Positions 2,489-39,459 of a stretch of DNA of 64,000 nucleotides are shown here, one piece after another. The notes below the pieces were generated by a model. The model saw nothing but the letters and a program-made list of their open reading frames with translations. It made no database searches and had not been told where the DNA came from. Source of the DNA: Atopobiaceae bacterium (GTDB taxonomy: Bacteria > Actinomycetota > Coriobacteriia > Coriobacteriales > Atopobiaceae); assembly GCA_017545665.1 (NCBI GenBank), contig JAFWKQ010000034.1, positions 26,302 to 90,301 on the forward strand. Reading direction: 5' to 3'. Made by a program: the position numbers and the translations under genes. The first letter of the stretch is position 1. Each line of letters opens with the position of its first letter.

Positions 2489-5400
2489 TTACGATAAAAG
2501 CCGTACGTTGTCCATCCCGCTCTGTGACTCATCGAATTGAGCGTTTGCATGCTCGAAGACTTCATCGTTCCACACCCTTATAACGTTGGAGTAAAACAGG
2601 CGCTGCACGGAGAGCACGACGTTGGACGGCCTGTACATGAGCATGTCTGTCTTGTGGATCGCTCCCACCACGCTGGCGTCTACCTCCCGCTTCACAAGCG
2701 GTTCCCGCTCGCTCGAGGCATCTTGTAGCAGCATCTCATAGAAGGGCAGAAGGTGACGCGCGTGACTCTTCAGGAGCGAATCGAGGTGATCGTATTCGAT
2801 CCTGTCATCAATGCTTGTCGCGAAATAGAACTTCAGCCTTCCGGTAAAGGGATCCAGATACACATGGTTGAAGAGGTCAATGTCCACTATGCATCCATGT
2901 ACCCTGCCCTCGCCACCGAACGCCCTCACCTCTTCTGCAATTGTGTTGATGGCACTCATGTACGACGAAAACGCTTTCTTGACCAGGCTCACGTACGGAA
3001 TCATGCGCTCAAAGTAGTATTTGGGGTCCTGTTTCTCGATCTTGTTAATCCGGCCGCCTGACAAAAGGTACATGTCTCCCGTCCGCTCCCACTTGAACAG
3101 GAACAAGTACACGGACTCCCGCTTGAGCATGAGAATCTGACCCTTCCGATTAAAGGAACCAATAGGTATGCCCCTGGTCCGGTTGAAGTCAAGGTAGTCG
3201 ACGTGCTCCACCTCATGTATGCCGTCGGACAGACGGCGGAACGGGTCGTAGCGACCCTCCACGTAGAAGCGCTTAAGTCCCGCGACCTGTCTGCTATAAC
3301 CGATCTGGTTGTCCGCATATGCCCTGGCATCGCCCTCCTCCACAAACGTGTTGCGATGCGTATGCCCGCTGACGTATACCCAGCCAGGCTGATAGTCGAG
3401 AGATGACCAGTTCGACATGGGGGTGTGCGTCGCCACTATGACGTTCGCGTCCGGCGCGAGCCTTCGGATTCTCTCGTGCAGCTTAGAAAACTTGTCGGAC
3501 AGAGCAGTGTCTTCTGCTCTGCTCGTGACTACGTCACGGTATAAGCCTTTCTCCGCGTTGTACTCATCGCAGAGCCCCGAAAAGCCGATGCCGCCGAGTA
3601 TGACATAGCTGCTCCGATGCAGATAGCTCGTCAGCTTATTGTCATCCTCATCCCTGAGCTGATCCTCGCTTATGTAATAGGGCTCCATTCCCCTATAAAG
3701 CACAAGCGCTTGGTTCTGGAGAAGACATATGCCCCTAAAGCTACCCAACATTTCGCGATACTTGTCAACGACGTCGCCGACCGCAGGCGTGCGTCTCCCT
3801 TTCGGGCCATCGCCCGACCAATCCCACAGCTCGTGGTTGCCAAGAACGCAGACAATCCTGCCTTCCCAGGCCTTCCTTAGCGCTCTGAAGAATATCTCCG
3901 CCACTTCTATGTTGAACGACGTGTCGCCTAGCACGAGAAGTACGTTCGTACGCTCTGATTCCGGTACGCTCTCGGCCAGCCCGACAGCGATACCTGTGAG
4001 GAAGTCCAATATCTGGCGCTCGGTCGCCTCTGTAGGGAACTTGTTCACGAGCATATGGTTCAAATGAAGATCGCTCACATAGTAGAAAGGGCGCCCAAAT
4101 TCGAACCGCTTGGGTGGGGTCATGTCCCTCACCGCACAAGTCAGAGACACGCATTCACTCGGGTTGCGGACTTCAGGAAAACTAACCCAAGCAGACACGA
4201 GCCTGTAGTATGCTGCGCTGTCGTACGCGCCTATTCGCCTGAGTGTCTCCACGGGAACGTTCACAGACGAGATGTCGTGCCTCGAGGCGTCGTAGTCATC
4301 AAACGAGTAGTCTCTGAACTCAACCATAGAGAGGTCACCGCCCAGCAGCGCGTCGAGTTCGTCCAGACTCTTTGGTCTAGATGTGAAATTGAAGATGTCA
4401 ATATATCCGTCGTCGTTGGCGAATGGACGCATGCTCAAAAAGACGCGCTCACAGTCGCATGAAATTGATTCGGTAACTACGAAGTGAAGGCTCTTCTTTA
4501 TCCATCTTGCGCCGGTCGTCCTTCTCATGCCTAGCCGTCTCATGAGCCGCGCAACGACTGGATCGCGCAGGCAGTCCCTCCCGATGCTCTTCAGCGCCTC
4601 CATCTCTCCTAGCGTCGGTAGCGAGGACTGGTTCCCCTCCGCATCGAGGAACGAGGTAAGCCAGCCGATAAGCATGCTTGTAGTAACCAACTTCCGCGGT
4701 ACGAAAGGGAATGCCTTCGGGTTTCTTGAACACGCCTCTTCGCAGATGTCGCTGGTCTTCTCCTTCTGGGGGAAGTACTGGAGCGCGAGCGGGCACTGCC
4801 CGAACGCCAAATCCAGCAGCTCGCGAGAGGGTCTAGGGACGAAGTGGATGGTCCTCCAATCGCGAGAAACTGCGTCGTACGCGAAATCGTTTAGGAGTCG
4901 TGGTGGTACGTAGCGGATGCATACTGGCTTGTCATCGACGGCTGCCCTGCACATCTCAGGAGTAACCAGTCGGCTCGGGACGCTGCCCAGGGCCTCCCCA
5001 TCGTTGGCAACGGCAATCGCTGCGACCTCTGCATCGATGAGCTTTTCCGGTACGTGCTTCAGAAGCGAGCCGTGTGACGCGACGGCGGCAAGTGCCATCT
5101 CCCTATCGCAGAAACGGCAGGGTATGTACTGAATCGAACGCGCGTCAGATTCGAAAGCGGTTCGCGAAATCTTTTTCGAAATACGCCTCTTAGGCACATA
5201 GCGCAGGGCCAAACCATTGGATTTGACCATAGACAGAAACAGCTCCCTACTTTGCTCGTCCGCCGGCACCAGCTCTATTGCGGCGGGGTTGCTACGGACC
5301 GCATCCTCGTAGATGCCCTCGTATCGGCAGTTGGCAGGAACATAGTGCAGGGCCAGCCCATTACTCTCCACTTCCATCTTGTAGAGACGAGGGTTTCTCC

Positions 5401-5674
5401 TGAGTATCATCTTCGACACGTAGGTCAAGGCACAGCCGTTTTGTCGAAGCGCCGTAACCACTTCTTCTAGCGTTTGCTCAGACTTCTTTATTCCTTTCAA
5501 GGCACAACCGTTCATACTGAGCGCAAGAAGTCGATGCTCCGGACATGACTTCACGACAGTTTTTGCCATGTAGAAATACTCAGACAGGTACTCAACCATC
5601 TGCTCGCTTGTTAGTCCGTTACGATACGCGTCCACGTCGAGCTTTGTCTTTGAAGTCAGTCCCTCTGTTGACAT
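2489..5674 (-). CDS. DUF4116-repeat protein fused to a calcineurin-like metallophosphoesterase
   Basis: 1061-aa ORF with GAGGAA 5 nt upstream of the ATG. The N-terminal half has at least 6 DUF4116-type repeats (NGCALTYVSK, SNGLALHYVP, SNGLALRYVPK, SHGSLLKHVP, NDGEALGSVP). The C-terminal half has the phosphoesterase motif series SDLHLNH / LGDTSFN / LGNHELWD / ATHTP / SGHTHRN. Confidence 0.75.
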   Translation of the reverse strand: MSTEGLTSKTKLDVDAYRNGLTSEQMVEYLSEYFYMAKTVVKSCPEHRLLALSMNGCALKGIKKSEQTLEEVVTALRQNGCALTYVSKMILRRNPRLYKMEVESNGLALHYVPANCRYEGIYEDAVRSNPAAIELVPADEQSRELFLSMVKSNGLALRYVPKRRISKKISRTAFESDARSIQYIPCRFCDREMALAAVASHGSLLKHVPEKLIDAEVAAIAVANDGEALGSVPSRLVTPEMCRAAVDDKPVCIRYVPPRLLNDFAYDAVSRDWRTIHFVPRPSRELLDLAFGQCPLALQYFPQKEKTSDICEEACSRNPKAFPFVPRKLVTTSMLIGWLTSFLDAEGNQSSLPTLGEMEALKSIGRDCLRDPVVARLMRRLGMRRTTGARWIKKSLHFVVTESISCDCERVFLSMRPFANDDGYIDIFNFTSRPKSLDELDALLGGDLSMVEFRDYSFDDYDASRHDISSVNVPVETLRRIGAYDSAAYYRLVSAWVSFPEVRNPSECVSLTCAVRDMTPPKRFEFGRPFYYVSDLHLNHMLVNKFPTEATERQILDFLTGIAVGLAESVPESERTNVLLVLGDTSFNIEVAEIFFRALRKAWEGRIVCVLGNHELWDWSGDGPKGRRTPAVGDVVDKYREMLGSFRGICLLQNQALVLYRGMEPYYISEDQLRDEDDNKLTSYLHRSSYVILGGIGFSGLCDEYNAEKGLYRDVVTSRAEDTALSDKFSKLHERIRRLAPDANVIVATHTPMSNWSSLDYQPGWVYVSGHTHRNTFVEEGDARAYADNQIGYSRQVAGLKRFYVEGRYDPFRRLSDGIHEVEHVDYLDFNRTRGIPIGSFNRKGQILMLKRESVYLFLFKWERTGDMYLLSGGRINKIEKQDPKYYFERMIPYVSLVKKAFSSYMSAINTIAEEVRAFGGEGRVHGCIVDIDLFNHVYLDPFTGRLKFYFATSIDDRIEYDHLDSLLKSHARHLLPFYEMLLQDASSEREPLVKREVDASVVGAIHKTDMLMYRPSNVVLSVQRLFYSNVIRVWNDEVFEHANAQFDESQSGMDNVRLLS

Positions 5675-6120
5675 GGTTGTTCCTCGCCACTTCGTACTAT
5701 GCTGCTAGTAAAATATCATTTTACATTCGAGACATTACTTTCCATATGTATATTTTGGGGCACGAGTATTCTTATGGGCAGCAAGGAGCTACCGCGGAGT
5801 ACCAATCGCCTCAACAGCTGTATGAGCACGACAAAGACGCCGCACGCGAGCGCATTGTGCTGACGATGATTCCTTACTACAAGGAGGCTGCACGATATAA
5901 GTAATCACCCAAGGCAGCGCATACCATAGCAGCTGCTTGATGTCCAACATCTGCACCCCGTCCTCAATAGCCGTTGTCTCCGACTCCCGCACTCCAGGCT
6001 TCACAGCGAGGGCTGATTCGACATGCGTTTACCCAGCTACGAATCCTTGCGAGACAATCACTGCCGGCTCACTTTGTCATTAGCTTTAGCCGCTTGTTGC
6101 TGTAAGCCTATACTCACCTG

Positions 6121-6556
6121 TGATTATTCCAGGCCAAAACGGCCATCGTTCCAAGCCGTCAGTCCACCGTTCCAGGCGTCGGCACCCGTTACGGGCTAAT
6201 GGCCACCCTTTGCTCTGTGTGCGTGCCTACCGCCATCGTAAAATGCCCTCGGGACAACGATGGGCTGGAGTGTCACAGCGTCGCAAGCATTACGAAGGCA
6301 TCGATCTCGGATAGCTGAGTGCCATCATTGCCATCAGATCGAAGTGCGTGCTTTTAAAGTGATGTATCGCTGTCCGTCGAGCGTAAACAATCGTCATCGC
6401 TGTCCAGTCCGAGATCTCGAGGCTTGAAGAAAACTTGCCGTCTAACCTTCAACGAAGATCAGGGCGGACCGATATGACTGGAACAATGGACCGTTTTCGT
6501 TGGAATGGTGGACCGCTGGTTTTTGGAGAGGATGCCGGTTTGCTCTGGAATATTCA
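6121..6556. mobile_element. MITE-like non-autonomous element A (436 bp) with inverted termini, phased subterminal repeats and flanking CACCTG duplication
   Basis: The left tip TGATTATTCCAGG and right tip CTCTGGAATATTCA are inverted repeats. CACCTG occurs at 6115-6120 and 6557-6562. The TTCCA/TGGAA cores recur at about 22-bp spacing (6127, 6149, 6170, 6189 and 6479, 6501, 6524, 6546). No ORF lies inside. Confidence 0.65.
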
Positions 6557-6580
6557 CACCTGGCGGGCAATCAAAACCAA

Positions 6581-10115: not shown

Positions 10116-11036
10116 CTATACGAACAGCCGCTTGAAGGCACCACCCTCAAGCTCTGCAAGGTTATAGATAGTCTCCATGATTTCAAATGTCTCGCGAAGG
10201 TTGTTGCGAGCGCTCTTCCATCCGCCCCCGTCAGTCACCCACACGAACTGGAAACCATCGATGCGTTCTGATTCCTGAGCCATCTCCTTGTAGGAACGTG
10301 CGGTCTCATTGAGCTTAGACCCGCCACCAGAATAGAAGTTGGTCTCGATGGCAAAGATGCCCCTCGCGGTTCGGACCACGAAGTCGAAACGCTTCTGCAC
10401 AGTGCCGTTGTTGGTAATCTCGGAGAGATCAATGCCCCAGAAACGCTGCATCTGGCTGGTGTAGAGCTCCTTGTAGTAGACGCCTGTCTCGAGAGGGTCG
10501 CCAATGATGGTTTTCTTGCCCTCACTATTACGCCGCTCTAGATTAGCCGTCATGAGGTAGCTCTCTACCAGATTCTCCATGAGGTGTCCACCGCGATTCT
10601 TGCGACCGTTGGAATCGAGGCCTACCTCGACGCCCGTCACGTAGTCCTGGAGATTTGTGATGGTGTGGTCCTCCATGAGGCCAAAGAGTCCGATGGAGCG
10701 CATAAAGTCGACATAGTCTTGTGGGCGCATCGTACCCTTCTTTGCACCGAATTGGAAGTATGCGAGAACTCCTGTTTCGTAAATGGGCACTTCGGTGGCA
10801 CGAACCGCGATGAGCGTTGGAATGACATTGAGCACATCGGGATACTTGCGCATGAGGGCGATGAAGTCAGCCTCGATGTTCTTGGAGCCGAGAAGTGAAT
10901 TCATTAGGTGAAGCTCAGGCTTCCACTTATATGCCTTGGCCACCGCTTTGTCAAAGTCAACGTAGTAGTCGTAGCTGGAGATGGTAGGCTTGAATTGGGC
11001 TAGCCATTCGTCGAAGTCTCTTGTGTTGCGAGCCAT
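10116..11036 (-). CDS. dpnB: DpnII/MboI-family type II restriction endonuclease (GATC)
   Basis: Starts at MARNTRDFDEWLAQFKPTISSYDYYVDFDKAV… (ATG 11036, GGGAGG upstream). The N-terminal region and overall length (306 aa) are typical of the DpnII endonuclease family. It is the third gene of a dpnM-dpnA-dpnB-ordered cassette and overlaps dpnA by 37 nt. Confidence 0.85.
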   Translation of the reverse strand: MARNTRDFDEWLAQFKPTISSYDYYVDFDKAVAKAYKWKPELHLMNSLLGSKNIEADFIALMRKYPDVLNVIPTLIAVRATEVPIYETGVLAYFQFGAKKGTMRPQDYVDFMRSIGLFGLMEDHTITNLQDYVTGVEVGLDSNGRKNRGGHLMENLVESYLMTANLERRNSEGKKTIIGDPLETGVYYKELYTSQMQRFWGIDLSEITNNGTVQKRFDFVVRTARGIFAIETNFYSGGGSKLNETARSYKEMAQESERIDGFQFVWVTDGGGWKSARNNLRETFEIMETIYNLAELEGGAFKRLFV

Positions 11037-11800
11037 ATTGGCACGACCTCCCTCTTGAGTCGTTCTGCTGCTATGGAAAGGTATTCCTCGGATGCGTCTA
11101 TGCCCGTTGACAGGCGACCAAGCCTCTTTGCGGACACGCAAGTAGTGCCGCTACCGACGAACGGGTCGAAAACGTGCTCGCCCTCGCGGGTCGAAGCCTG
11201 GATAATGCGGTCGAGGAGGTACAGTGGCTTCTGCGTTGGGTGTTTACCGCACGCCTTCTCGGACTTTGGGGTGAGCGTGCCCTCCCAGACGTCCTTCATC
11301 TGCTTGCCGCCGTTAATCTCCTTCATGAGTGTGTAGTCGAAGTAGTGCTTGGCCTTCTTGTCGTTCTTCTGCGCCCAGAGGATGGTCTCGGTGGAGTGGG
11401 TGAAACAACGGCACGCCAGGTTGGGCGGAGGATTGAGCTTCTGCCACGTGATGTTGTTGAGGATACGGAAGCCCTCCTGCTCCAAGGCCATGCCGCATGA
11501 GTAGATGTTGTGAAACGATCCGCTTATCCAGATAGTGCCGTTAAGCGTGAGCAGGCGATAGCACTCGCGTATCCAACGACGGTTAAAGTCGTGCTTTTCC
11601 TCGATGCCGTAGCTCCTGTCCCACTCACCCTTATTGACACTAACCTGCTTACCACCCGAGCAAGATATCCCATCGTTCGAGAGAAAATAGGGCGGATCAG
11701 CGAACACCATATCGAAGGAACCGTCTGGTAACTCGCCCATGACCTCGAACGCGTCGCCGTGCAATAGCTTGGACACCTCGTCCTTGTAGAAGGCATCCAT
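11000..11800 (-). CDS. dpnA: DpnA-like N6-adenine/N4-cytosine DNA methyltransferase (beta class)
   Basis: The motif order is catalytic DPPY (MVFADPPYFLSND) followed by the C-terminal SAM-binding FDPFVGSGTT. 266 aa; the stop is 3 nt before dpnM in the same operon. Confidence 0.85.
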   Translation of the reverse strand: MDAFYKDEVSKLLHGDAFEVMGELPDGSFDMVFADPPYFLSNDGISCSGGKQVSVNKGEWDRSYGIEEKHDFNRRWIRECYRLLTLNGTIWISGSFHNIYSCGMALEQEGFRILNNITWQKLNPPPNLACRCFTHSTETILWAQKNDKKAKHYFDYTLMKEINGGKQMKDVWEGTLTPKSEKACGKHPTQKPLYLLDRIIQASTREGEHVFDPFVGSGTTCVSAKRLGRLSTGIDASEEYLSIAAERLKREVVPIWLATQETSTNG

Positions 11801-11802
11801 GG

Positions 11803-12651
11803 TTAACGATCCAAGTAGTTGGTGACGATGACCTCGGTGCCATGGCGCTTGGAAGCGTCCGAGTTGATCGCACGTGCCACGTCAACCACATCGATTCTGT
11901 AGCCCTCGTAAAGCTCGCGGATGAGCGGCGTATTGTGATTGGTAAGCATGAGAAGGGAACCCCGCGCATCAAGATCGCGATAGAGAGCAGCGAGGCGGCG
12001 GTGGTCCTCCTCCAGGAACCCCTCCTTGGTGTACGCCTCGAAGGTTGTCTCTTTAACCGGAACGTAGGGCGAGTCGAAGAACACGAAGTCGCCCGCCTTC
12101 GCATCCGACACAGCAGCCTCGAAGTCGCCACACATGAGCGTTGCGCGGCCAAGAGCCTCGGAAACGGCCCTTGTGTTCTCGGGCTCGAACGATGCCCTCA
12201 GTGAGTTGTTGTATGGAACGTTGAACGCGCCTTTGGCGTTAACACGATACAAGCCGTTGAAGCAATGCTTATTGATGAACACCATGAGCGCCGCCGTCTC
12301 GGTGGTGTAGGTATCCGAGGTAAGCAGCTGGTTGTATTGGTCACGCATGGCGTAGTAGTAAGCCTTCGCTTCTACCTTGTCATGAGGGATGGCCCCGTCT
12401 ATCTCCGAGAGCACTTGAACAAAGACATCATGCTCGTCTCGTACGCGCTCATAGAGGTTGATGAGTGCACGATTGAGATCGTTTACCGTAGCCTCCTTGG
12501 GCTGGAGATGGAAGAAGAGCGCCCCTCCTCCGAGGAACGGTTCGTAGTAGCGACCGTACTTGCTAGGAAGCCGGTCGTCAATGCGGTCGAGTAGCTGGCG
12601 CTTGCCGCCTGCCCATTTTATGAGTGGCGAGGGAATCTCTGTTATGCGCAT
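11803..12651 (-). CDS. dpnM: Dam/DpnM-like GATC N6-adenine DNA methyltransferase (D12 class)
   Basis: From ATG 12651: MRITEIPSPLIKWAGGKRQLL…YYEPFLGGGALFF…FVFFDSPYVP, which are the hallmark Dam-family motifs. Confidence 0.9.
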   Translation of the reverse strand: MRITEIPSPLIKWAGGKRQLLDRIDDRLPSKYGRYYEPFLGGGALFFHLQPKEATVNDLNRALINLYERVRDEHDVFVQVLSEIDGAIPHDKVEAKAYYYAMRDQYNQLLTSDTYTTETAALMVFINKHCFNGLYRVNAKGAFNVPYNNSLRASFEPENTRAVSEALGRATLMCGDFEAAVSDAKAGDFVFFDSPYVPVKETTFEAYTKEGFLEEDHRRLAALYRDLDARGSLLMLTNHNTPLIRELYEGYRIDVVDVARAINSDASKRHGTEVIVTNYLDR

Positions 12652-14298: not shown

Positions 14299-17200
14299 AT
14301 GGAACTAGGCCTCTACGAGCAAGTAGTCAACGAGCTTCTCGCTAAACAGCTGACTGAGCTGCCAGCCAACATCAATCCCTCTGTCGCCGACATCGACAAA
14401 GCCGAGGCCAGCACCATCCTTGCTGCCTACATTGCCCAACAGGCGGAGTCCATGCTCGCCCAAGCTTCCGATAAGGGCCTCGACACTCAGGTTGCGCTTG
14501 CCAACAAGATGCTCTCCGTAATCGAAGAGTCCCCGGAGCATGCCATCAATACACCCGCCCGACAGCTTCTCTCGCTAGTAAGTACTACACAAGACAAGGC
14601 AAAGCGCAAAAAGAGCTACATCGTCCGACCCGAGACGTCCATATCGCACAGCTCACTCTTTACCGGCTCGCAGCACGAACCACAGCTGGAAACGGAACTT
14701 AACAAAGAGATTGCATCCGCCGACCGCATCGATATGCTCGTCTCGTTCATAAAATGGAGCGGACTTAGACTCCTTATGCCCCGATTGCAGGCATTCGCTG
14801 GTCGTGGCGGTCGCTTGCGCATCATAACCACTACATACATTGGTGCCACCGATGCCAAGGCCATCGAAGAGCTGTCCAAACTGCCAAACACGCGCATCAA
14901 GGTTTCGTTTGACTCTCAGCATACGCGGCTTCACGCAAAAGCTTATCTCTTCTACCGCAACACCGGCTTTAGCACCGCCTATGTAGGATCGAGCAACATC
15001 TCCATGCCCGCTATCACTAGCGGACTTGAGTGGAACATGAAGATAACCGCCCAAGATCAGCCGACCGTCATGGATAAGATGGCCGCGACGTTTGCAAGCT
15101 ATTGGGAAAGTTCCGACTTCGAAGAATACACCTCACAAATGCGAAATCGCCTTGTAGAGGCAATCGAAGAGGAGCGCAATCCCAAGCATCTACATGTAGA
15201 GATGGATGCCATAACGCATTTCTTAGACGTTCGGCCATATCCCTACCAGCAGGACATTCTCGACAAGCTCCGTGCAGAGCGAGAGGTGGCCAACAGATGG
15301 CACAACCTCGTGGTTGCCGCCACAGGAACGGGTAAGACTGTTATCTCTGCATTGGACTACCGCAGCTGGTGCAGGCTATATAGCAAAGGGCGTAACGCAA
15401 AGCTCCTTTTTGTTGCTCACCGCGAGGAAATCCTCAAGCAGAGTCTTTCGTGCTTCCGCATGGTGCTCAAGGACAACAACTTCGGCGAGTTGCTTGTGGG
15501 GTCATCACGGGTGGACTCGTTTGACCACCTCTTCTGTTCAATACAATCGCTTAACTCACGCAAGCTGACTGAGACTCTGCCCGCCAACCAGTATGACTAT
15601 ATTGTCGTAGACGAGTTCCACCATGCAGCCGCGCCCTCATACCGAAGGCTCCTGAGCTACTTCAAGCCTAAGACGCTGCTCGGTCTTACCGCAACGCCCG
15701 AGCGTCTTGACGGAGAGAGCATCCTGCCCTGGTTCGACAACAGGATAGCTGCCGAGATCCGCTTGCCCGAAGCAATAGATCGCAAGTTGCTATGCCCCTT
15801 CCATTACTTTGGTGTGTCGGACGAGGTGGATCTATCTACCGTCCGCTGGACACGAGGCGGATACGACACAAAGGAGCTCGAGAACGTCTTCGTGTTCAAA
15901 CGCGAGATCGCGCTCAAGCGCGTTCGCATGGTAATCGATGCGGTAGTCAAGTACACCGCAGATGTTAACGACATGTGCGGACTGGGCTTCTGCGTCTCCA
16001 AAGAGCATGCACGCTTTATGGCGGAACAATTCAACGCAGCTGGCATTCCCGCCATCGCTCTTACCAGCGATGATAGCCACGAGGCGCGAATTGCCGCGCG
16101 AGGGCGACTGGAGTCCGGCGAGGTCAAGATCATCTTTGTCGTAGACCTGTACAACGAAGGCGTAGACATTCCTCAGGTAAAAACCGTGCTGTTCCTTCGC
16201 CCCACCGACTCGCTCACCATATTCATCCAGCAGCTCGGCCGCGGCCTTCGCTTGTCTCCCGAAACTGGCAAGGAATGTCTGACGGTGCTGGACTTCATCG
16301 GTCAGGCAAACAAGCTCTACCGCTTCGAGGAGAAGTTCGCCGCACTTCTGCCCGACAAGACGGGCAGCGTGTGCCACGCCATTGACAACGACTTCGCGTT
16401 TTTGCCAAAGGGATGCTACATTCAGCTCGAGCGCAAGGCAAAGGAATACGTGCTGGGCAACATCCGCCAATCGCTTGGCATGAAATCGGGCATCGTGTCG
16501 AGACTTCGCACGTTTGAGGAAGACACGGGCAAAGAGCCCACGCTTGCGAACTTCCTCAACTATTACCACCTGGACATTCGTACCATTCTGGCAAAGAACA
16601 GCTTCTCGCGTCTGTGCGTGGAGGCCGGCGTGCGCGAGGACTTTGGCGACCCGGATGAGAAGGAACTGACAAAGGCGTTGTCGCGCGTCTGCCAGATCGA
16701 TTCGCGGCGCTGGATTCGGTTCATCTTGGGCGTGCTTTTGCTCGAAGACGTTCGTGATGAGGACGAGATGAGTGCTGGCGAGCGTCGAATGCTCAAGATG
16801 TTCCAGATAACGTTGTGGCCCAACTCGTTTAAGGACAATTCTTTTGACTTATACGACAAATGGGTAGAGCGCCTTATGGACAATCCCACTATGCTTGCCG
16901 AGATCATCGGAACGCTTCAATGGCAGCTCGACCACATAGACTTTGTGGATGCGCCCGTGGACTGGGGTTTCGACTGTCCGCTGGACTTGCACTGCTCCTA
17001 CTCGCGTGACCAGATCTTCGCGGCGATAGACCTTGCCAACCCATCGTCGGTTCGCGAGGGCGTACGCTGGATTCCAGACCATAGTGTCGACGTACTCGTG
17101 AACACGCTCAACAAGGCTGAGAAGGACTACTCCCCCACCACCATGTACCAGGACTACTCAATCTCGGACCGATTGTTCCACTGGCAGAGCCAATCCACTA

Positions 17201-17439
17201 CCAGTGAGGCCTCGCCAACAGGACAACGCTACATCCATCACGTCCAGCAAGGGAGCAATGTCGCACTCTTTGTTCGCGAATATAAGAAGGACAGCTTTGG
17301 ACTTACGGCGCCGTTCTGCTTCCTTGGCCTTGTCGACTATCGCTCGCACGAAGGCGAACGGCCCATGTCCATCGTCTGGAGCCTTCGCGAGCCCATCCCC
17401 GCGCGCTACCTCCCCAAGACCAACAAGCTCGCAGGGTAA
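14299..17439 (+). CDS. PLD(HKD)-nuclease / SF2 helicase / DUF3427 fusion protein (defence-island type)
   Basis: 1046 aa. It carries the HKD motif HTRLHAKAYLF…GSSNIS and the helicase motifs VAATGTGKT, VVDEFHH, LTATPER and QQLGRGLR. It ends in a long C-terminal DUF3427-type region. Confidence 0.85.
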   Translation: MELGLYEQVVNELLAKQLTELPANINPSVADIDKAEASTILAAYIAQQAESMLAQASDKGLDTQVALANKMLSVIEESPEHAINTPARQLLSLVSTTQDKAKRKKSYIVRPETSISHSSLFTGSQHEPQLETELNKEIASADRIDMLVSFIKWSGLRLLMPRLQAFAGRGGRLRIITTTYIGATDAKAIEELSKLPNTRIKVSFDSQHTRLHAKAYLFYRNTGFSTAYVGSSNISMPAITSGLEWNMKITAQDQPTVMDKMAATFASYWESSDFEEYTSQMRNRLVEAIEEERNPKHLHVEMDAITHFLDVRPYPYQQDILDKLRAEREVANRWHNLVVAATGTGKTVISALDYRSWCRLYSKGRNAKLLFVAHREEILKQSLSCFRMVLKDNNFGELLVGSSRVDSFDHLFCSIQSLNSRKLTETLPANQYDYIVVDEFHHAAAPSYRRLLSYFKPKTLLGLTATPERLDGESILPWFDNRIAAEIRLPEAIDRKLLCPFHYFGVSDEVDLSTVRWTRGGYDTKELENVFVFKREIALKRVRMVIDAVVKYTADVNDMCGLGFCVSKEHARFMAEQFNAAGIPAIALTSDDSHEARIAARGRLESGEVKIIFVVDLYNEGVDIPQVKTVLFLRPTDSLTIFIQQLGRGLRLSPETGKECLTVLDFIGQANKLYRFEEKFAALLPDKTGSVCHAIDNDFAFLPKGCYIQLERKAKEYVLGNIRQSLGMKSGIVSRLRTFEEDTGKEPTLANFLNYYHLDIRTILAKNSFSRLCVEAGVREDFGDPDEKELTKALSRVCQIDSRRWIRFILGVLLLEDVRDEDEMSAGERRMLKMFQITLWPNSFKDNSFDLYDKWVERLMDNPTMLAEIIGTLQWQLDHIDFVDAPVDWGFDCPLDLHCSYSRDQIFAAIDLANPSSVREGVRWIPDHSVDVLVNTLNKAEKDYSPTTMYQDYSISDRLFHWQSQSTTSEASPTGQRYIHHVQQGSNVALFVREYKKDSFGLTAPFCFLGLVDYRSHEGERPMSIVWSLREPIPARYLPKTNKLAG

Positions 17440-18063: not shown

Positions 18064-19761
18064 ATGGAGACTACGGTGCCAAAAAAACTCACCATTACGC
18101 AAGAGGCGGTTCAAGACTATATCAGCGGCGAAAAGGACAGATACGGCACGGTGCTAACCGACAGTGAAGTGTTCGAGCGCATCGCCTCACAGCAAGTGTT
18201 GAAACAATACGCAATAGACGATGACGAGACGGAAAGGGGTATAGTTGGAGGGGGCAACGATGGTGGGTATGACGGAATCTTCGTTTTTTCGAATGAGGTA
18301 TTAGTGTCTGGGGAGGATACTAATTCGCTGGAGATTCAAAACCGTTCAGCAATCGATATCTATTTCATCCAAGCAAAAAACTCCTACGGTTTTTCCGAAT
18401 CGATAGTGCAGAACTGGAAAACTTCATTTCCAAACCTTATCGAGAATCCGAGAGGTGATGCCCAAAGATATAACACCGACGTAATCGAAGCTTTCACGCT
18501 CATCAGGAGCATACTAAAAAAGACTGTTGTATCACATCTTTGCGTAACATTAAACTTTGTAGCTGTGTCACTTGCAGAAGAGACGCACATCAATCTTGAG
18601 AAGCAAGCTGAAGAGCTTACCAGTATCGTCTATAACATAATACCAAGCCAAAACGCAAAGGTTACCACTGCATTCATTAATGTGCGCAAACTATATGAGC
18701 TTATTGAGCAGGCTCCCGATGAGACTAGATCGATTCGTGCCACAAAAGAGCCTTTATGTCCGGATGAGTCAAGTGCGATTCTTGTAGTCGAATTGGGAGA
18801 ATACTATAAATTCATTACAGACGATAACGGTTTGTTGATTAAAGACCTCTTTGAATCAAATATTAGAGACTACCAAGGCAACATCGAAGTGAACAAAGCA
18901 ATAAGGGCAACACTTGAAAAACAAAATAATATTGATTTCTGGTGGTTAAACAATGGCATCACGATTGTTGCAGAAACAGTTACTCGAGATATGGGTAGCA
19001 CTATAACAATGAAGAACCCACGAATAGTGAACGGATTACAGACTTCCAATGAAATTCGACGCTACTGTCACAATAACACCGAAGTCAACGAACATAGAAA
19101 GGTACTTGTAAAGTGCATTGCAACATCGAGCCAAGAGAATCGCTCGGCGATTATTGAAGCAACAAATAAACAAAGCACAATTCCACCTGCTTTTCTCCGA
19201 TCTCTCGATACCATTCAGTTGCAAATTGAACGTTACTTTACAAATCACAATCTTCACTACGACAGGAGAAAAAGCTCGTGTAGGAATGCGGGTATTCCTG
19301 CAAAAGAGATCATTTCTTTGCCTTTCCTTGGTCAATGCTTGATTTCGATACTCTTACAACAACCTGACTATGCTCGCGCTCGACCAGCTCAAGTTTTAAA
19401 TGATGATAAGAAGTATCAGACAATATTTAATGAATCAATATCTCTGGAGGCTTATTTACGTGTCGGATCTCTTGCATTGTATACACGTCAGTGGCTGAAA
19501 GAGTCGTCATACTCCCGAGGCGCACAAAATGACATAATGTTTTATGTATTACTCTTTATTTGCATCAAACAAGTTGGTCATGAAAACATCAGTCCTTCAG
19601 ATCTTCTATGTCTTGAAATCCCATCAGAATGGGCAATCGAAGATTATGCGTGTCAAACACATAACGCTTACGTACGACTGGGCGGTAATCCCACAGTCGC
19701 AAAGGGGCGTGGTCTTGTTCGCGAAGTAGTACAACTGGCTATGGCGGAAAAGGCTAACTAG
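18064..19761 (+). CDS. AIPR-family abortive-infection protein
   Basis: 565 aa with the N-terminal motif GGGNDGGYDGIFVF…IYFIQAKNS and the central RIVNGLQTSNEI (the xNGxQT motif of AIPR). The gene is markedly AT-richer than its neighbours. Confidence 0.75.
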   Translation: METTVPKKLTITQEAVQDYISGEKDRYGTVLTDSEVFERIASQQVLKQYAIDDDETERGIVGGGNDGGYDGIFVFSNEVLVSGEDTNSLEIQNRSAIDIYFIQAKNSYGFSESIVQNWKTSFPNLIENPRGDAQRYNTDVIEAFTLIRSILKKTVVSHLCVTLNFVAVSLAEETHINLEKQAEELTSIVYNIIPSQNAKVTTAFINVRKLYELIEQAPDETRSIRATKEPLCPDESSAILVVELGEYYKFITDDNGLLIKDLFESNIRDYQGNIEVNKAIRATLEKQNNIDFWWLNNGITIVAETVTRDMGSTITMKNPRIVNGLQTSNEIRRYCHNNTEVNEHRKVLVKCIATSSQENRSAIIEATNKQSTIPPAFLRSLDTIQLQIERYFTNHNLHYDRRKSSCRNAGIPAKEIISLPFLGQCLISILLQQPDYARARPAQVLNDDKKYQTIFNESISLEAYLRVGSLALYTRQWLKESSYSRGAQNDIMFYVLLFICIKQVGHENISPSDLLCLEIPSEWAIEDYACQTHNAYVRLGGNPTVAKGRGLVREVVQLAMAEKAN

Positions 19762-19889: not shown

Positions 19890-20927
19890 ATGACAGATCA
19901 AAGGAACAGGCACTCCCCCGACCCAACCCTCGCCTACTACGCCGCACACGCTCAAGAGTTCGCCGACTCCACCGTGGGCGTCGAGTTCTCGCATACGCAG
20001 CACAAGTTCGAAGAGCTCCTCCCGCCCGGCGCGCGCATTCTGGACTTCGGCTGCGGGTCTGGTCGCGACACCAAGCACTTCCTCGAGGCCGGCTACGACG
20101 TCGTTGCCATAGACGGGTCCCCCGAGCTCTGCCAATACGCCCATGAGCTCACGGGGATCCCCCATCCGAAACGAGCGGTTCCAGGACCTTGTCGACGTCG
20201 AGGCATACGACGGAATCTGGGCGTGCTCGTCCATACTCCACCTTCCCAAGGCGGAGCTCCCCGGCGTCCTTGCGCTCATGGTTCGGGCGCTCAGGCTCCA
20301 CGGCATTATCTACACCTCGTTCAAGCTCGGTGGCTTCGATGGCATGCGCAACGGCCGCTACTTCTCCGACTTCACGGAGCCGGAGCTGCGCGACCTCATC
20401 GGCTCGATCCCGCAGCTCGCCTGATTATTCCGACGTAAACCATCAGTCCTTCCAAGATTTGCCGGCACCCGTTCCAAACTGAGACGGCACCCGTTCCAGA
20501 GCGTCGGCACCTGTTTCGCCCCAGCCTAATCTCAGCCATCATGCCGGTTGGTGCAGAATCGCATAACGTGTGCCAGCTCCATATCCGGAAGCTAGAGAAA
20601 CTAAATCTCTCGCGTGGATAGACACATTTCGACCGTCCCAGATTCGCTGTGAGGGCGTCCGATGGCCAATCTCTATGCCAATGGGTGGTCGATGCTGGCT
20701 TCGATGATTCCCCGCTTGTCTCAGTAGTGAATAGTGGGTGCCGATGCTCTGGAAAGGGTGCCGGTGCCCGTAATGGGTGCCGGCACCCGGAACACCTGAC
20801 CGATGATCTGGAACAGCCGCCGTTATGGCTTGGAATAATCACCGTCGAGGAGCTCTGGACGTCTGGCGACGTGCGCCCCGGAAGGGAGAGCGAGCAGTGG
20901 TTGAACGTGCTCCTGCGCAAGGCATAG
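19890..20927 (+). pseudogene. Class I SAM-dependent methyltransferase, inactivated by a +1 frameshift in a C5 run and by insertion of MITE-like element B
   Basis: Frame 1 reads …ARILDFGCGSGRDTKHFLEAGYDVVAIDGSPELCQYAHELTGIP. After the C-run at 20159-20163, frame 2 continues IRNERFQDLVDVEAYDGIWACSSILHL…DFTEPELRDLIGSIPQLA. A TGA supplied by the first 3 nt of the element (20422) ends it. The conserved family C-terminus (T)VEELWTSGDVRPGRESEQWLNVLLRKA* resumes at 20841-20927. Confidence 0.75.
20422..20841. mobile_element. MITE-like non-autonomous element B (420 bp), same family as element A
   Basis: The tips are TGATTATTCCG … TGGAATAATCA. The left-end cores lie at 20428, 20450, 20472, 20494 and 20514 (22-bp phasing) within CGGCACCCGTTCCA units. 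Inverted units lie at 20750, 20770, 20788, 20809 and 20831. The element interrupts the methyltransferase reading frame. Confidence 0.7.
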
Positions 20928-23419
20928 CGCTCCCCGCCCCGCTCGACGGGTTCGTGCTGCGCGAGTCGGTCGCCTACCCAAACGGCGGCCGGAGCCTGTT
21001 CTATGTGTGCGACGGCGACGCGCTCATCCTTGGTGACGGCATCTGCCAGGTTACCGATGACCGCATGCTGTTCGACTACTCCCTCATCACCAGCATGCAG
21101 AACGCCTACGCAGCGCGGTATCGGCGAGTGTTTCGCTTTTTGCGCGAGGACGTGGGCCAGGCCGAAAGGTTCCTGAGGTACGACATCGAGTACGGCGAAG
21201 CGATTCCTAAGAGAATGCCTGCCGACCAGGCGAACATCGCCGAAGCCACGCCTCTCGAACGTGCCTTCGAGGAGCACTTCGCCAACGTCTACGGCGCAAA
21301 CAGCACGCAATGCCTGTGGCGCGAGTACGGCATAACGGACGCGGAGGGGCACACGCGCTACATCGACTACGTCGTCAGGACGAGGAACGGTCTTCTCGGC
21401 GTGGAGGAGAACGGCGTCTCCTACCACCATCCCCAGATCATCGGCAGGCACCGCTACCGGGAGCAGCTGCTCAAGCAGAACTCCTGCCAGCAGCTCGGCA
21501 TCAAGCCCTTTCGCTTCTCGACCGAGGACTGCAGATTCGCCGAACGGTTTGAAGACGACATCCGCTCCTACTTCGGCAACGACAGGAAGTCGTTTCTGGA
21601 TCCCGGCCTTGTCTTGGACAGGCCCTTCGAGCTGTACGAGCACCAGGAGGGCGCCCTGGACGAGATCGACCGACGTCGGGCCGAGGGCACCAAGAGCTTC
21701 CTTGCCGTGCTGCCCACCGCGAGCGGCAAGTCGCGTATCGTGGAGGAAGACCTTGCTCGGTTCGCGTACGCGCATCCCGATTGCCGTGCCCTCATACTCG
21801 CGCCCAGCACCGCGATCGTCGATGACTGGAAACATCGCATACGATCTTCTTTTCCTGCACTTGCCAATCGCACGCTCGTTTGCACGTATGGCTTCATGAC
21901 CAGACGATACACGCAGTATGCGCCCGACGACTTCGATTACATCGTGGTAGACGAGGCCCACCATGCGGTCGCGCCGGCGCTCAAGCGCACGATTCAGTAC
22001 TTCGACCCCGCGTTTCTCATCGGCCTCACGGCAACGGACCAGCGCCCGGACAAGAAGAGCCTGAGCGCGGTTTTCGGCTCGTACCGCGCGGGCTTGTCTC
22101 TTACCGACGCCATGGAGAAGGGCATCGTGGCGACGGCGCGCGCGTTTAGGATCGAGACCAACGTAGACCTGAGCAACGTGCGCATAAACGGCCGAGACTA
22201 CGTAAACGCCGACCTAGAGAAGACGGTGCGCGTGACCTCCCGGAACGACCTCATCGTGGACGTGCTGCGCGAGTACTTTTGCGAGGGAGACGCAGGGCGG
22301 TGCCAGGGCGTCGCGTTCTGCGCCAACGTCCGGCACGCAAAGGAGATGAAGCGGCTGCTTTGCGCCGCCTGCAAACGCGCGCGGGCGATATACGGGCAGA
22401 GCAAGGGAAGGACCGCGCAGGCGATGCGGGACTTTCGCGACGGCAAAATCCGCTTCCTCTGCAGCTGCCAGATGATATCGCAGGGCTGGGACTACCCCGA
22501 GCTCGGCATCCTCGTGATGACGCGGCCCACCCTCTTGCGCGTGCTGTACCTGCAGCAGCTCGGGCGCGGCCTGCGAAGGACCCCCTCGAAGAGGGACGTG
22601 TTCGTGATCGACGTGGTGGACGAGTACGGCAGCATGGCCGCTCCGTGCTCGCTGCACTCCATCTTCCAGAACCCCTACTACGTGCCGTTCGGGAGCATCC
22701 TTCGCCGCGACTACGAGCCTGGGGAGTGGGTGGAGGTCGACGGCGTCCGCGAGCGGATAGAGCGCATCGTCGAGGTCGACGTCGCGTCGTTCGCGGAGAG
22801 GTACGAGGGGTACCTGAGCGTGGAGCAGGTCGCGCGCGAGTTCTTCGTGAGCACGGGCACCTTTGGCGGCTGGGTCAGGCGCGGCCGCCTGGCACCGACC
22901 GTCACCTTCGAGTTCGGCAGCAGGCGCATCCACATGTTCAGCCCCGAGGACGTGGAGGCGGCGCGCGTGCGCCTGGGCATTCCCGTCCACGACGACACGA
23001 CCATACGCGATGACTTCCTCGCCTTCCTGGAGGCGCGCGACTACTCGCTCTCGTACAAGATGCCATTCATGCTCTCGTTCCTCGACCACATGGACTCCGC
23101 CACGGGCGCGGCGCAGATCGACGACGTGCTGGACGACTACATCGCGTTCTACGCGGACCGCCTCCGGCGAGGTCTGCGGGTCGACCGCGCGACGTGCCCC
23201 TACGACGAGGCCAGGCTCGCCAACCGCAAGTTCGTAAGGAGCAGCATGCTCACCAACCCGTTCGAGAAGTTCGAGCGCAAGCGGTTCATGTACTACTCCA
23301 AGGACCTCGGGCAGATCTCGCTCAACCACGCCCTTCTCGCCAGCCTGAGCGACGCCGACTACGAGGCGATCCGCGCACAGATGCGCGCCGACCTGGAGGA
23401 CTACTACGCCAAGCTGTGA
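20825..23419 (+). CDS. Vsr/DUF559-like endonuclease domain + SF2 (DEAH) helicase + HTH + C-terminal uncharacterised domain
   Basis: The N-terminal segment has YIDYVVRTRNGLLGVEENGVSYHHP…FRFSTED (D…E-x-G-x-x-H nuclease pattern). The helicase motifs are LPTASGKS, VVDEAHH, LTATDQR and QQLGRGLRR. A MerR/excisionase-like HTH (LSVEQVAREFFVSTGTFGGWVRRGRL) follows. The ORF-track start at 20825 lies inside element B, so the real start is probably downstream (GTG 20954 or later). Confidence 0.75.
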   Translation: MAWNNHRRGALDVWRRAPRKGERAVVERAPAQGIALPAPLDGFVLRESVAYPNGGRSLFYVCDGDALILGDGICQVTDDRMLFDYSLITSMQNAYAARYRRVFRFLREDVGQAERFLRYDIEYGEAIPKRMPADQANIAEATPLERAFEEHFANVYGANSTQCLWREYGITDAEGHTRYIDYVVRTRNGLLGVEENGVSYHHPQIIGRHRYREQLLKQNSCQQLGIKPFRFSTEDCRFAERFEDDIRSYFGNDRKSFLDPGLVLDRPFELYEHQEGALDEIDRRRAEGTKSFLAVLPTASGKSRIVEEDLARFAYAHPDCRALILAPSTAIVDDWKHRIRSSFPALANRTLVCTYGFMTRRYTQYAPDDFDYIVVDEAHHAVAPALKRTIQYFDPAFLIGLTATDQRPDKKSLSAVFGSYRAGLSLTDAMEKGIVATARAFRIETNVDLSNVRINGRDYVNADLEKTVRVTSRNDLIVDVLREYFCEGDAGRCQGVAFCANVRHAKEMKRLLCAACKRARAIYGQSKGRTAQAMRDFRDGKIRFLCSCQMISQGWDYPELGILVMTRPTLLRVLYLQQLGRGLRRTPSKRDVFVIDVVDEYGSMAAPCSLHSIFQNPYYVPFGSILRRDYEPGEWVEVDGVRERIERIVEVDVASFAERYEGYLSVEQVAREFFVSTGTFGGWVRRGRLAPTVTFEFGSRRIHMFSPEDVEAARVRLGIPVHDDTTIRDDFLAFLEARDYSLSYKMPFMLSFLDHMDSATGAAQIDDVLDDYIAFYADRLRRGLRVDRATCPYDEARLANRKFVRSSMLTNPFEKFERKRFMYYSKDLGQISLNHALLASLSDADYEAIRAQMRADLEDYYAKL

Positions 23420-33139: not shown

Positions 33140-33649
33140 GTTCGCCCTCCTTTCGAAGAACGCCGCCCGCGCGCGGACTCTGCAGGCACGTGCTTGGCAT
33201 TCTATCGATGCGGCGGGCGTCGGGAGCGCGCCCTTTTCGCACCACTGGCGCAAGACAACGGTGTAGTTAAGCCAGGTATAGGTGCGCCACTTCGAGACAC
33301 CCCGCCCCAGCGAAAACCTTTCGGACGGCCGCATGCCAACTGGTAACTACGCACAACGCATTTCATTGTGCATAGTTCCTCGAAGAAGCCCAGTTGGCTA
33401 ATCGCCGCGAACGTCAAATTACGCACCGTACTGCGTTGTGCGTAATTGGGCGTCCCGCACCGGCCGAGCAGTCACGTGCCCTTCTCACCCCTTCTATGCC
33501 TTTGCCCAAAGCGCATCGTTTGACTTCAGCATTACGGGATCTTCTCGCCACAGGGCAGCAGTCCACAACGGATGCCCCATCTCGGGCGCCCCCGCAACGC
33601 GCTCGGACCCAGCCCGCGCCCAGCGTCCCATTCCCCGAGCGACTTCATT

Positions 33650-33756
33650 ACATAAACAATGCAATCTGCACACAAAACGCGACGTAAGAAGGACTTCGTG
33701 TACATTACCTGCCTCGGAGTGTACACATGTTCGTTTTCGTGTCACGCTTTTTTAGG
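33650..33756. repeat. Nested-palindrome intergenic repeat, copy 1 (degenerate right arm)
   Basis: ATCTGCACACAAAACGCGACG … GTGTACA … GAGTGTACAC … CGTTTTCGTGTCACG followed by TTTTTT. It is the same family as 35686 and 39155. Confidence 0.7.
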
Positions 33757-34902
33757 TTGACTTTTTGATACGCTCTGAACTCCGATGCACATCCTTCTGC
33801 CTGTCCGCAGGAGTTAAAAGGTCGCTGCGTTGCCGGTTTATATTGCTATGGGGTACGCACAATGCTTTTCATTGGGTTGAATCCCGAGGTCATCCGTATG
33901 AGCGCCGCACTGGGGACGGACGGCGCGGGCTGACGGGGTGCGGAGTGCGCTGCGAGCATGCGCGCCTGGCACCCAAAATCCGTCCCGTTATTGTCTCATT
34001 TCTCGAATAATTTCTATTCTATCCATGTGTTTTTGCTGAGTGCATACACATTACGGGGCGTTTTTTTGTATGCGTTTCGGCCGCACGGGACAATCTTGCC
34101 CCGCAAAGCACAAGGTCAGAGGCAACGTTTTTTGGTGCCGTATCCGCCGTGTGCGGAATGCTGCCCCACTTTTGAGGCCGCCTAGCTGGGGATTTGCCGG
34201 GCTCGTTATGCCACCGGCGGAACACCGCACCCCACAACAGCTTGCCCCCGCAGGAGGATCCCACAAAAACGACCCGTCTAGCTGGGCAAACTCTCCAGAG
34301 CCATTCTGAGGCCCGCTTTTCCGCCATAAGGTGTCCTGTGCCGTCGATGCGGCAAAGGCAGCGTCATACGTCCTTCTGGGGTGTCGCCTGTTCTGCGCGA
34401 CAGCGTCTGCTGGGATTCTGCGCGACAACGTCTGGTTGGGGCGTGCTGCCGCTTGCGTCGCGAACGCCCAGATGGCGAGACGGAAGAGCGCTGCAGGAAC
34501 GAGGCTGCGTCCCCCGTAGGTGTTATAGCCGTTGAAAAACAATTTTAGGCACGCACTCCCTCGTCTCTTCCCCGTCAGCCTCGAATCCTTTCGCTCGTGC
34601 GGACCAGATGTCCGCCGCCCGCAGAAGCATAGCCGTCACATCAGGCATCTTACAGACGCGATGTTCGCTTTCCCCCGGTTCACTGGGCGTGTTGCTCACG
34701 CCTGGTGCAATGCCTGTTCTTCCGCATCGCACAAGCTCTTCTCGGAGTCAAGTGTCCTCAAGCTCTAAAACGCGACGACCCAACTGTGCCAACAAAGTCG
34801 AGCATTGTGGCCGCTCCCGAGGCGTGTCATGCATATACTTGTCTCGCCATAGCACGTCAACAGTAGGCAAATCAGCCAAAGGCACCGAGCAAGAGGGTAA
34901 CC

Positions 34903-35505: not shown

Positions 35506-35685
35506 CTCCAGCATGGCTTCGCAAAGCCGCACAATGGCAAGCAAGCGCCCCGTCGCCCTGCTGGATTCAAAAACCGGCAGCCGACGAGCACGAGCGCACA
35601 CGCGATAAATGCCATCACTGCCAGCCAATACTCGGCCGCACGATTTGCGAGAGTGTGGCAGCGAGTGGCCCATGCGCCGCCTCGA

Positions 35686-35806
35686 ATCAAATATGAAATC
35701 TGCACACAAAACGCGACGCAAAAAGGGCCTTGTGTACACTCTCGGCCTCGGAGTGCACACAGGTCCGCTTTCGCGTCGCGTTTTGTGTGCAGATTGTTTT
35801 TTATAC
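35686..35806. repeat. Nested-palindrome intergenic repeat, copy 2 (best preserved)
   Basis: The outer arms are ATCTGCACACAAAACGCGACGC (35698-35719) and GCGTCGCGTTTTGTGTGCAGAT (35772-35793). The inner arms are GTGTACACTC and GAGTGCACAC. A TCAAATATGAAA leader precedes it and TTGTTTTTT trails it. Confidence 0.85.
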
Positions 35807-36376: not shown

Positions 36377-36390
36377 GCTCTTAAAAGCGG

Positions 36391-36460
36391 GACAAAGGGG
36401 ACAGTCCCCTTTGTCTCTTTCAGCTTATTTTGGGGCCAAAGGGGACTGTCCCCTTTGGCC
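36391..36460. terminator. Two tandem GGGGAC(A/T)GTCCCC-core hairpins between convergent genes (bidirectional terminators)
   Basis: GACAAAGGGGAC-A-GTCCCCTTTGTC (36391-36415) is followed by TCTTTCAGCTTATTTT. The second hairpin is GGCCAAAGGGGAC-T-GTCCCCTTTGGCC (36434-36460). Confidence 0.7.
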
Positions 36461-36466
36461 CACTTG

Positions 36467-38837: not shown

Positions 38838-39154
38838 AACTTTCCCTTCTGATAGAGATGAAGTCCCTTGTCACGAGATTGTATAACAGTTTTAGCGGAA
38901 ACGCTGCTGGCAGTATGCGCATACTTACAGAAAGCAAACGAGAGGCGCTTGGCCCGCCCGGTCGCTTTCGCCTTATCGCCAATTCCGTGGGTTAATCATC
39001 TTTCTCGTCATTTCTCCTGCGGCACCTTGCCCCCCCCTACGTCGTTGCCATTAACTGCGCGTCGTGGGCGGGCGCGTCCCACGCATCCTACGGACGTGGA
39101 GAGCCTTTGAGCGCGCCAAGCGGGCAAGGCCCCGCGCCCATGCCCGTGCTTCTT

Positions 39155-39275
39155 ATCAAATATGAAACCTGTACACAAAACGCGACGCTAAAAAGCCTCC
39201 GTGTACACTCCGAGACCAAGAGTGTACACAAGGCCGATTCCACGTCACGTTTTGTGTGCAGATTGACCTTTTTAT
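39155..39275. repeat. Nested-palindrome intergenic repeat, copy 3
   Basis: TCAAATATGAAACCTGTACACAAAACGCGACGC … GTGTACACTC … GAGTGTACAC … CGTCACGTTTTGTGTGCAGAT followed by TGACCTTTTT. Confidence 0.8.
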
Positions 39276-39341
39276 GAACACGGGAGACAAGAGCTGCGCA
39301 AGTTCCTAGCACCAACCGAACCAGACAAGGGAAAAGCGGGC

Positions 39342-39459
39342 CAAAGGGGACAGTCCCCTTTGTCCCGCCTACCTGTCCCCTTGGTAGCTTTTAGGACCTC
39401 TACGAGCGCAGCTTGAGCAGACGCTTAGCTGACAAGTGACCTGTCCCCTTGTCAGCTTT
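39342..39459. repeat. Cluster of three GGGGACAG-core hairpins at the 3-prime end of the large minus-strand operon
   Basis: The three hairpins are CAAAGGGGACAGTCCCCTTTG (39342-39362), CTACC-TGTCCCCTT-GGTAG and AGCTGACAAG-…CTGTCCC…-CTTGTCAGCT (39427-39459). They have the same core as the hairpins at 36391-36460. Confidence 0.6.

Follow-up and report, generated by a model that had tools for sequence, protein, structure and literature searches.

Two gene-less elements in an Atopobiaceae contig are very probably MITEs derived from an IS21-family insertion sequence

MITEs derived from insertion sequences (IS) are well known, and in bacteria other IS families have given rise to Correia/IS-like elements, IS630-derived MITEs and IS5-derived MITEs. 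IS21 makes a target-site duplication (TSD) of 4 bp, and the range across the IS21 family is 4-8 bp. The TIRs of IS21 elements contain multiple direct repeats (L1/L2 and R1/R2) placed ~23 bp apart and end in CA-3′, and IstA requires two complete repeats together with the terminal CA (PMC10122671). In IS5376, an IstA tetramer synapses two supercoiled ends and the insertions carry 5-bp repeats; the geometry seen by cryo-EM for IstA alone would give repeats of 2-3 bp, and correct duplications need IstB (PMC10122671). Decamers of IstB bend the target DNA and activate IstA (PMC11208146), and the IstA/IstB pair has been likened to MuA/MuB and TnsB/TnsC (PMC10122671). A literature search, which had ISfinder outside its scope, found no paper describing an IS21-derived MITE. 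Here, we describe two elements, copies A and B, which we consider with a probability of about 90% to be IS21-derived MITEs that carry no gene and keep only ~110 bp of each IS end.

Both copies lie in a 64-kb window, the whole stretch of DNA that was analysed. Copy A is a non-coding element of 436 bp at 6121-6556, on the minus strand in IS orientation (from the istA side to the istB side), and copy B is a non-coding element of 420 bp at 20422-20841, on the plus strand and thus opposite to copy A. Reading of the sequence confirmed the coordinates, the inverted tips and the bracketing CACCTG hexamers that an initial annotation had reported for copy A, and the second copy to which it referred was also recovered, by a tip search with a minus-strand match at 20827-20841. 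Similarity between the two copies is confined to the terminal ~110 bp on either side, with unrelated interiors.

The ends of both copies are built from CGGCACCCGTTCCA-like repeat units, which start at 20, 41-43, 60-64, 79-84 and 99-105 bp from each tip. These units keep one orientation relative to the tip, and they are direct on one side and inverted on the other, just as annotated at first. The phased terminal array proposed there also stands, but the strict phasing of ~22 bp has to be relaxed to a spacing of 19-23 bp, and the array reaches ~100-115 bp from the tip rather than ~75 bp. Within 5 mismatches of the consensus, copy A has two units at the IRL end and four at the IRR end, while copy B has four or five per end; the copy A units are degenerate, with 2-5 mismatches, and those of copy B are cleaner, with 0-3. 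Across both strands of the 64-kb window, 10 of the 17 unit matches at <=3 mismatches are located in the two elements, which together make up 856 bp, and an nhmmer profile of the end has just four matches in the window, the two ends of each copy. One nhmmer profile recovers all ends of the MITEs and of the related IS described below, with E-values of 1e-19 to 1e-28, and all these ends have a TGA(T/A)TATTCC tip and, spaced 19-23 bp apart, four to five units. The phased end pattern is real and beyond chance. By analogy with studied IS21 ends, ~220 of the ~430 bp in each MITE would be putative transposase-binding arrays.

In copy A, the IRR-type (istB-proximal) end lies at 6121-6235 on the plus strand and consists of the tip TGATTATTCC and four units, starting at positions 20, 41, 60 and 81 from the tip (nhmmer, 91.1 bits). 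The IRL-type (istA-proximal) end lies at 6437-6556 on the minus strand, with the tip TGAATATTCC and CGGTCCAyyrTTCCA units (66.5 bits); the ends first named left and right are therefore the istB-proximal (IRR) and istA-proximal (IRL) ends, respectively. The inverted TG…CA tips read TGATTATTCCAGG on the left and, as the reverse complement, TGAATATTCCAGAG on the right, and a repeat finder detected a 36-nt terminal inverted repeat together with additional internal inverted pairs. The element is flanked by identical CACCTG hexamers at 6115-6120 and 6557-6562. These hexamers fit a genuine TSD of copy A, as first suggested, because the parent family makes 6-bp duplications.

A full-length A-type homologue was found in Coriobacteriaceae RUG13846 (L139:3500-3958), with 78.7% identity to copy A over the whole element, interior included, and with flanks unrelated to those of copy A. 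The mismatches between the two show no 3-base (codon) periodicity. The L139 IRR has one additional 19-bp repeat unit (L139:3870-3888 region), and therefore the number of putative transposase sites per end differs among copies. The L139 junction is ambiguous and lies in a GGC-repeat context, with CGGCGG on one side and A-CGGCGG on the other. For copy A, the search for an empty site found none: all contigs with the exact neighbouring proteins contain the element as well, and these proteins are singleton clusters at 90% identity. The contigs that hold the genes neighbouring the elements are all metagenomic, and all carry the elements.

In copy B, the nhmmer profile places the IRL-type end at 20422-20539 and the IRR-type end at 20731-20841, and both tips are perfect copies of TGATTATTCC. 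The element cuts a class I SAM methyltransferase gene on the plus strand, whose 5′ part (19890-20421) was delimited by Pfam, three-frame translation and homologue alignment and whose 3′ part (20842-20927) was delimited by protein alignment and the empty site. The TSD of copy B is 2 bp, with CC at 20420-20421 repeated at 20842-20843. When copy B and 2 bp were taken out, the product aligned without gaps to nine intact methyltransferase homologues. The closest intact methyltransferase gene (L215, ~90% DNA identity) gives the empty site at the nucleotide level: its positions 1022-1142 align with the left flank of copy B and 1141-1252 with the right flank, overlapping at L215:1141-1142. The empty-site comparison suggested at the outset could thus be made for copy B, with its TSD of 2 bp, but not for copy A. 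The nucleotide empty site, like the reading frame and the protein alignment, rules out a TSD of 5 or 6 bp for copy B. A slightly different strain (ENA) also carries copy B, and the B-type element was seen at one site only. The methyltransferase gene (19890-20927) is also frameshifted near 20150, at a G/C homopolymer run; with both the insertion and this frameshift, it is doubly inactivated.

An apparent defence island surrounds both MITEs (window 2489-23419). It includes genes for a DUF4116-metallophosphatase protein (2489-5674), a DpnII-type restriction-modification system with two methyltransferases (10116-12651), a PLD-helicase-DUF3427 protein (14299-17439), an AIPR abortive-infection protein (18064-19761) and a ResIII helicase (20897-23419), and ThsA-Macro, McrB and PDDEXK_4 genes lie further upstream on the same contig (L002). 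The GC content changes from ~44% to ~61% near 19.8 kb. Other repeats in the window are a 127-nt family with a 45-nt hairpin (33645-33771, 35679-35805 and 39148-39274), 33-nt GGGGACAGTCCCC palindromes (36383-36470 and 39332-39366) and a 228-nt direct repeat, 97% identical, in a Gly-codon-rich region (39706-39933 and 40318-40545).

A gapped pattern, consisting of the tip and two phased TTCCA units, was searched in one genome per species and gave 73 loci, which were sorted by eye and with BLAST. Ten loci held true relatives of the end, in eight MAGs labelled Coriobacteriaceae, Coriobacteriales, Atopobiaceae or Eggerthellaceae, and most of these MAGs come from rumen or ruminant-gut samples by record title (RUG and RGIG series; sheep, roe deer). 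The distribution of these relatives, together with that of the named methyltransferase homologues, suggests that the host of copies A and B probably belongs to the Coriobacteriia. A distant element, with the tip TGATTATTCCA and very regular 22-bp-phased GACCACCCGTTCCACG units, was found in two loci, one labelled Syntrophobacterales (L128) and one Pseudomonadales (L177). Just inside the end in L128 lie genes for IstA (HTH, rve and Mu-transpos_C_2) and IstB (IstB_IS21, E = 4e-70). Three loci from Coriobacteriia contain an IstB remnant whose reading direction is towards the tip, and tyrosine-recombinase genes truncate IstB there. The intact elements were reached through a search of a protein collection with the IstB remnant, from which three matches were followed to their contigs.

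The parent IS spans 2,908 bp on a metagenome contig (L200:367-3274), and the same insertion is present in L201. It has TGATTATTCC at both tips, phased CGGCACC-GTTCCA units as in the MITEs, and a flanking 6-bp TSD, CGTCAT. IstA has 540 aa (L200:479-2101) and matches Pfam HTH_23, rve and Mu-transpos_C_2; its score with NCBIfam NF033546 (IS21 family transposase) is 239.9 bits at a cutoff of 160, and the IstA proteins of L202 and L204 score 248 and 221 bits. IstB, of 258 aa, is encoded directly downstream of istA and matches PF01695 (IstB_IS21), as do the IstB proteins of L202, L204 and L211, while NF038214 scores IstB at 158 bits, below its cutoff of 200. Against the IS5376 structures, the parent IstA matches 8b4h and 8q4d over the catalytic core (E = 2e-11) and the parent IstB matches IstB with E = 1.7e-14. 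Since IstA passes NF033546 and IstB has its Pfam match, the parent belongs to the IS21 family, and these autonomous relatives are IS21-family insertion sequences in every feature of that family that was looked for.

Several further elements belong with this parent. L202 carries a variant with 77-80% protein identity, and L204-L207 carry a sister IS of 2,580 bp with TGATTATTAC tips. The sister IS has the TSD GTCGGA in L205, and the TSD CCCCTT is shared by the left flank, as seen in L207, and the right flank, as seen in L204; one AAA_21 gene contains both flanks. A TSD of 6 bp is therefore found in three independent IS insertions as well as in copy A. A third reading frame, ORF3, of 100 aa in L200 (L200:2866-3168) and of 99-106 aa in general, overlaps the istB stop and ends just before IRR, and it is intact in 6/6 variants examined (elsewhere at L202:5132-5452, L160:4911-5210, L211:2682-2981, L212:2477-2776 and L209:382-675, the last on the minus strand). 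ORF3 has no Pfam or NCBIfam match. Truncated IS copies occur in Coriobacteriia MAGs from the rumen and gut, and remnants of this IS family are common (L129, L144 and L160).

Tyrosine recombinase gene trios lie in or adjoin the IS at L144:461-3347, L160:15-~4200 and L200:3856-6379 and resemble "recombinase in trio" elements. They truncate istB in L144 and L160, and in L160 the N-terminal domain of a recombinase is joined in frame to the remainder of IstB. One of the two mobile elements may prefer the other as its target. The tyrosine recombinases were ruled out as the mobilising enzymes: they truncate istB in L144 and L160 and are absent from the intact IS. A separate observation concerns a MAG of Prevotellaceae bacterium UBA4372, which holds >20 copies of an ~83-bp palindromic element with the tips TGATTATTCCATG…CATGGAATAATCA, matching the tip of the IS21 subgroup of the copies (loci L132, L133, L140, L142, L146, L149-L151, L163, L169, L171, L173, L174, L178, L181, L183, L185, L192, L193, L195 and L196). 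This element may be a still shorter MITE, from a related IS; a coincidental match is the alternative.

Both copies could be tied to this parent end by end. For copy B, IRL and IRR are 83.5% identical over 91 bp and 82.7% identical over 104 bp, respectively, to those of the L200 IS. Over 74 bp, the IRR of copy A shares 92% identity with the IRR adjoining ORF3/IstB in L209, L130, L143 and L157, and the IRL of copy A is 79% identical over 57 bp to that of the L202 IS, a weaker support than for the other ends; the contigs that carry the IS variant nearest to copy A end within the IS, and no complete IRL was recovered from them. No homologue of IstA, IstB or ORF3 was found by tblastn in the 64-kb window, nor any similarity to them within either copy, in agreement with the earlier claims that no transposase is encoded there and that both copies derive, as non-autonomous elements, from a DDE transposon unseen in the window; the L200 IstA/IstB IS is the parent of the copies. 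The suggested search for further copies and a full-length parent was also borne out, by the A-type element in L139 and the IS in L200/L201. An additional ~26 kb of flank held no further ends, and the autonomous IS is absent from the window and from that flank. Neither copy has a blastn match among PLSDB plasmids, viral contigs matched neither the tandem-unit pattern nor the IstB protein, and a pattern scan of JGI metagenomes gave only two short contigs, both with IS fragments.

Taken together, copies A and B are small and non-coding, both ends of each are homologous to those of an autonomous IS, and the short form, in the A-type, is found at unrelated sites; they are MITEs in these respects. 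Their mobility is supported by the A-type at unrelated sites, the empty site of copy B and the 6-bp TSDs. A contrary reading takes the elements for a conserved regulatory region or a structured RNA that does not move, and for it one could cite the position of copy A in a 906-bp intergenic region between co-directional genes and its presence in all contigs with those neighbour genes. We regard this as next to impossible: copy A has no Rfam match, no promoter or terminator signal was found inside the element, the same ends bound the IstA/IstB IS, and copy B splits a coding gene for which there is a clean empty site. The initial annotation had itself raised a conserved regulatory region as the contrary case, and it is contradicted by that empty site, by the unrelated flanks in L139 and by the IS-bounding ends.

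The copies might alternatively be dead scars rather than a MITE lineage, left where a full IS had inserted and later lost its interior. No part of the IS resembles the interiors of copies A and B, however, and after a simple internal deletion istA or ORF3 sequence would remain beside the ends. Truncated remnants of the same IS family are indeed common (L129, L144, L160), and copy B, seen at one site with an interior unlike that of copy A, would be compatible with such an origin. Against this stands the A-type element: in L139, from another genome, it is present at an unrelated site in full length and with its non-IS interior, and therefore the short form itself has spread. In situ deletion is accordingly improbable in our estimation, and we retain the reading as IS21-derived MITEs.

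A further question is which class of transposon the parent represents. The initial annotation had assigned the copies to a Tn7-, Mu-, Tn402/Tn5053- or Tn552-type transposon, with a transposase of the TnsB/MuA/TniA class, and not to an IS. Tn7, Mu and Tn402 give TSDs of 5 bp, compared with the 6 bp found here. Every autonomous element with these ends that was checked for gene content (L200, L201, L202, L204-L207, L211 and L128) encodes IstA and IstB and no other transposition-related gene; the elements are 2.6-2.9 kb long, without genes of the TnsA, TnsC, TniQ or TniR type, and IstA scores above the curated NCBIfam cutoff for IS21. The TG…CA tips and the several phased sites per end would be shared with such transposons, a parallel that has been drawn in the literature (PMC10122671), and the C-terminal barrel of IstA matches Pfam Mu-transpos_C_2. 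Multiple phased sites are documented for IS21 ends, though, so the statement that this architecture is "not of ordinary IS elements" does not hold; the mechanistic kinship with Mu and Tn7 that it implied is well founded (PMC10122671), but the family assignment is wrong, the parent encoding IstA and IstB of the IS21 family. We consider the assignment to a Tn7- or Mu-type transposon very improbable and place the parent of both MITEs in the IS21 family.

By analogy with IS5376, the repeat units are probably binding sites for the HTH domains of IstA. A tetramer of IstA would synapse both ends and cleave at the terminal CA, and the AAA+ ATPase IstB would bend and position the target DNA for staggered strand transfer. 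The MITEs encode nothing and would therefore be movable only with IstA and IstB supplied in trans, from an autonomous copy in the cell; the copies may still be mobilisable. The 2-bp TSD of copy B fits the 2-3 bp stagger of IstA without IstB, and it could alternatively result from a 4-bp deletion beside the tip after insertion.

A broader reading would join these observations into a distinct three-gene IS21 subgroup with its own MITEs, defined by the genes istA, istB and ORF3, by ends with four to five IstA sites each and by a 6-bp TSD, and known to date from Coriobacteriia MAGs and from unassigned contigs of metagenomes. In this joint reading, the copies could be the first described IS21-derived MITEs, and the 2-bp TSD of copy B would be an IstB-less footprint. 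Taken as a whole, it is tentative and rather unlikely. If the 2-bp TSD is indeed an IstB-less footprint, mobilisation of MITEs in trans can bypass proper engagement of IstB.

These results turn an apparent orphan repeat into an annotated mobile element with a family, a parent and insertion footprints. Copy B has knocked out a methyltransferase gene in a defence-gene island, and copy A lies between co-directional genes. The parent IS and the MITEs offer natural multi-site IS21 ends, with 4-5 sites in comparison with the 2 studied in IS5376, and the contrast between the 6-bp and 2-bp TSDs could be used for testing how IstB sets the stagger of strand transfer. Established knowledge of IS21 is not overturned by these elements.

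Compared with MITEs of other IS families, copies A and B are similarly short (~420-440 bp) and non-coding, with TIRs that match an autonomous IS, with TSDs, and at unrelated sites in intergenic or gene-disrupting positions. They differ in that their parent is an IS with two proteins, a transposase and an ATPase, and with long multi-site ends; MITEs of the other families have a simple TIR of 20-30 bp, and the copies have long putative binding arrays instead. The ends of Tn7, Mu and Tn402 are alike in the TG…CA tips and in the several sites per end at ~20-bp phasing, and there, too, the transposase is paired with an AAA+ target-DNA ATPase (PMC10122671). In contrast with these transposons, IstA is not TnsB, MuA or TniA, and the parent has no further transposition genes, a length of 2.9 kb and a 6-bp TSD.

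The closest described systems are the members of the IS21 family, such as IS21 and IS5376. The parent shares with them the istA-istB order, an IstA with HTH, DDE (rve) and beta-barrel domains, the IstB_IS21 domain, ends of the form 5′-TG…CA-3′, direct repeats about two helical turns apart and a short TSD. This type of end architecture appears to extend to the distant element in L128, where the tip TGATTATTCCA and the 22-bp-phased units are also found and the IstA is 35% identical. The parent differs from IS5376 and IS21 in its TSD, of 6 bp compared with 5 bp and 4 bp, respectively, and from standard IS21 in having the conserved ORF3, 99-106 aa long. The IstA proteins of the parent and of IS5376 are only distant relatives (E = 2e-11, over the catalytic core). 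The parent and the MITEs have four to five units per end over ~110 bp, whereas IS5376 has two (PMC10122671). In a further contrast with IS21 and IS5376, what the 64-kb window holds is only the miniature, gene-less form.
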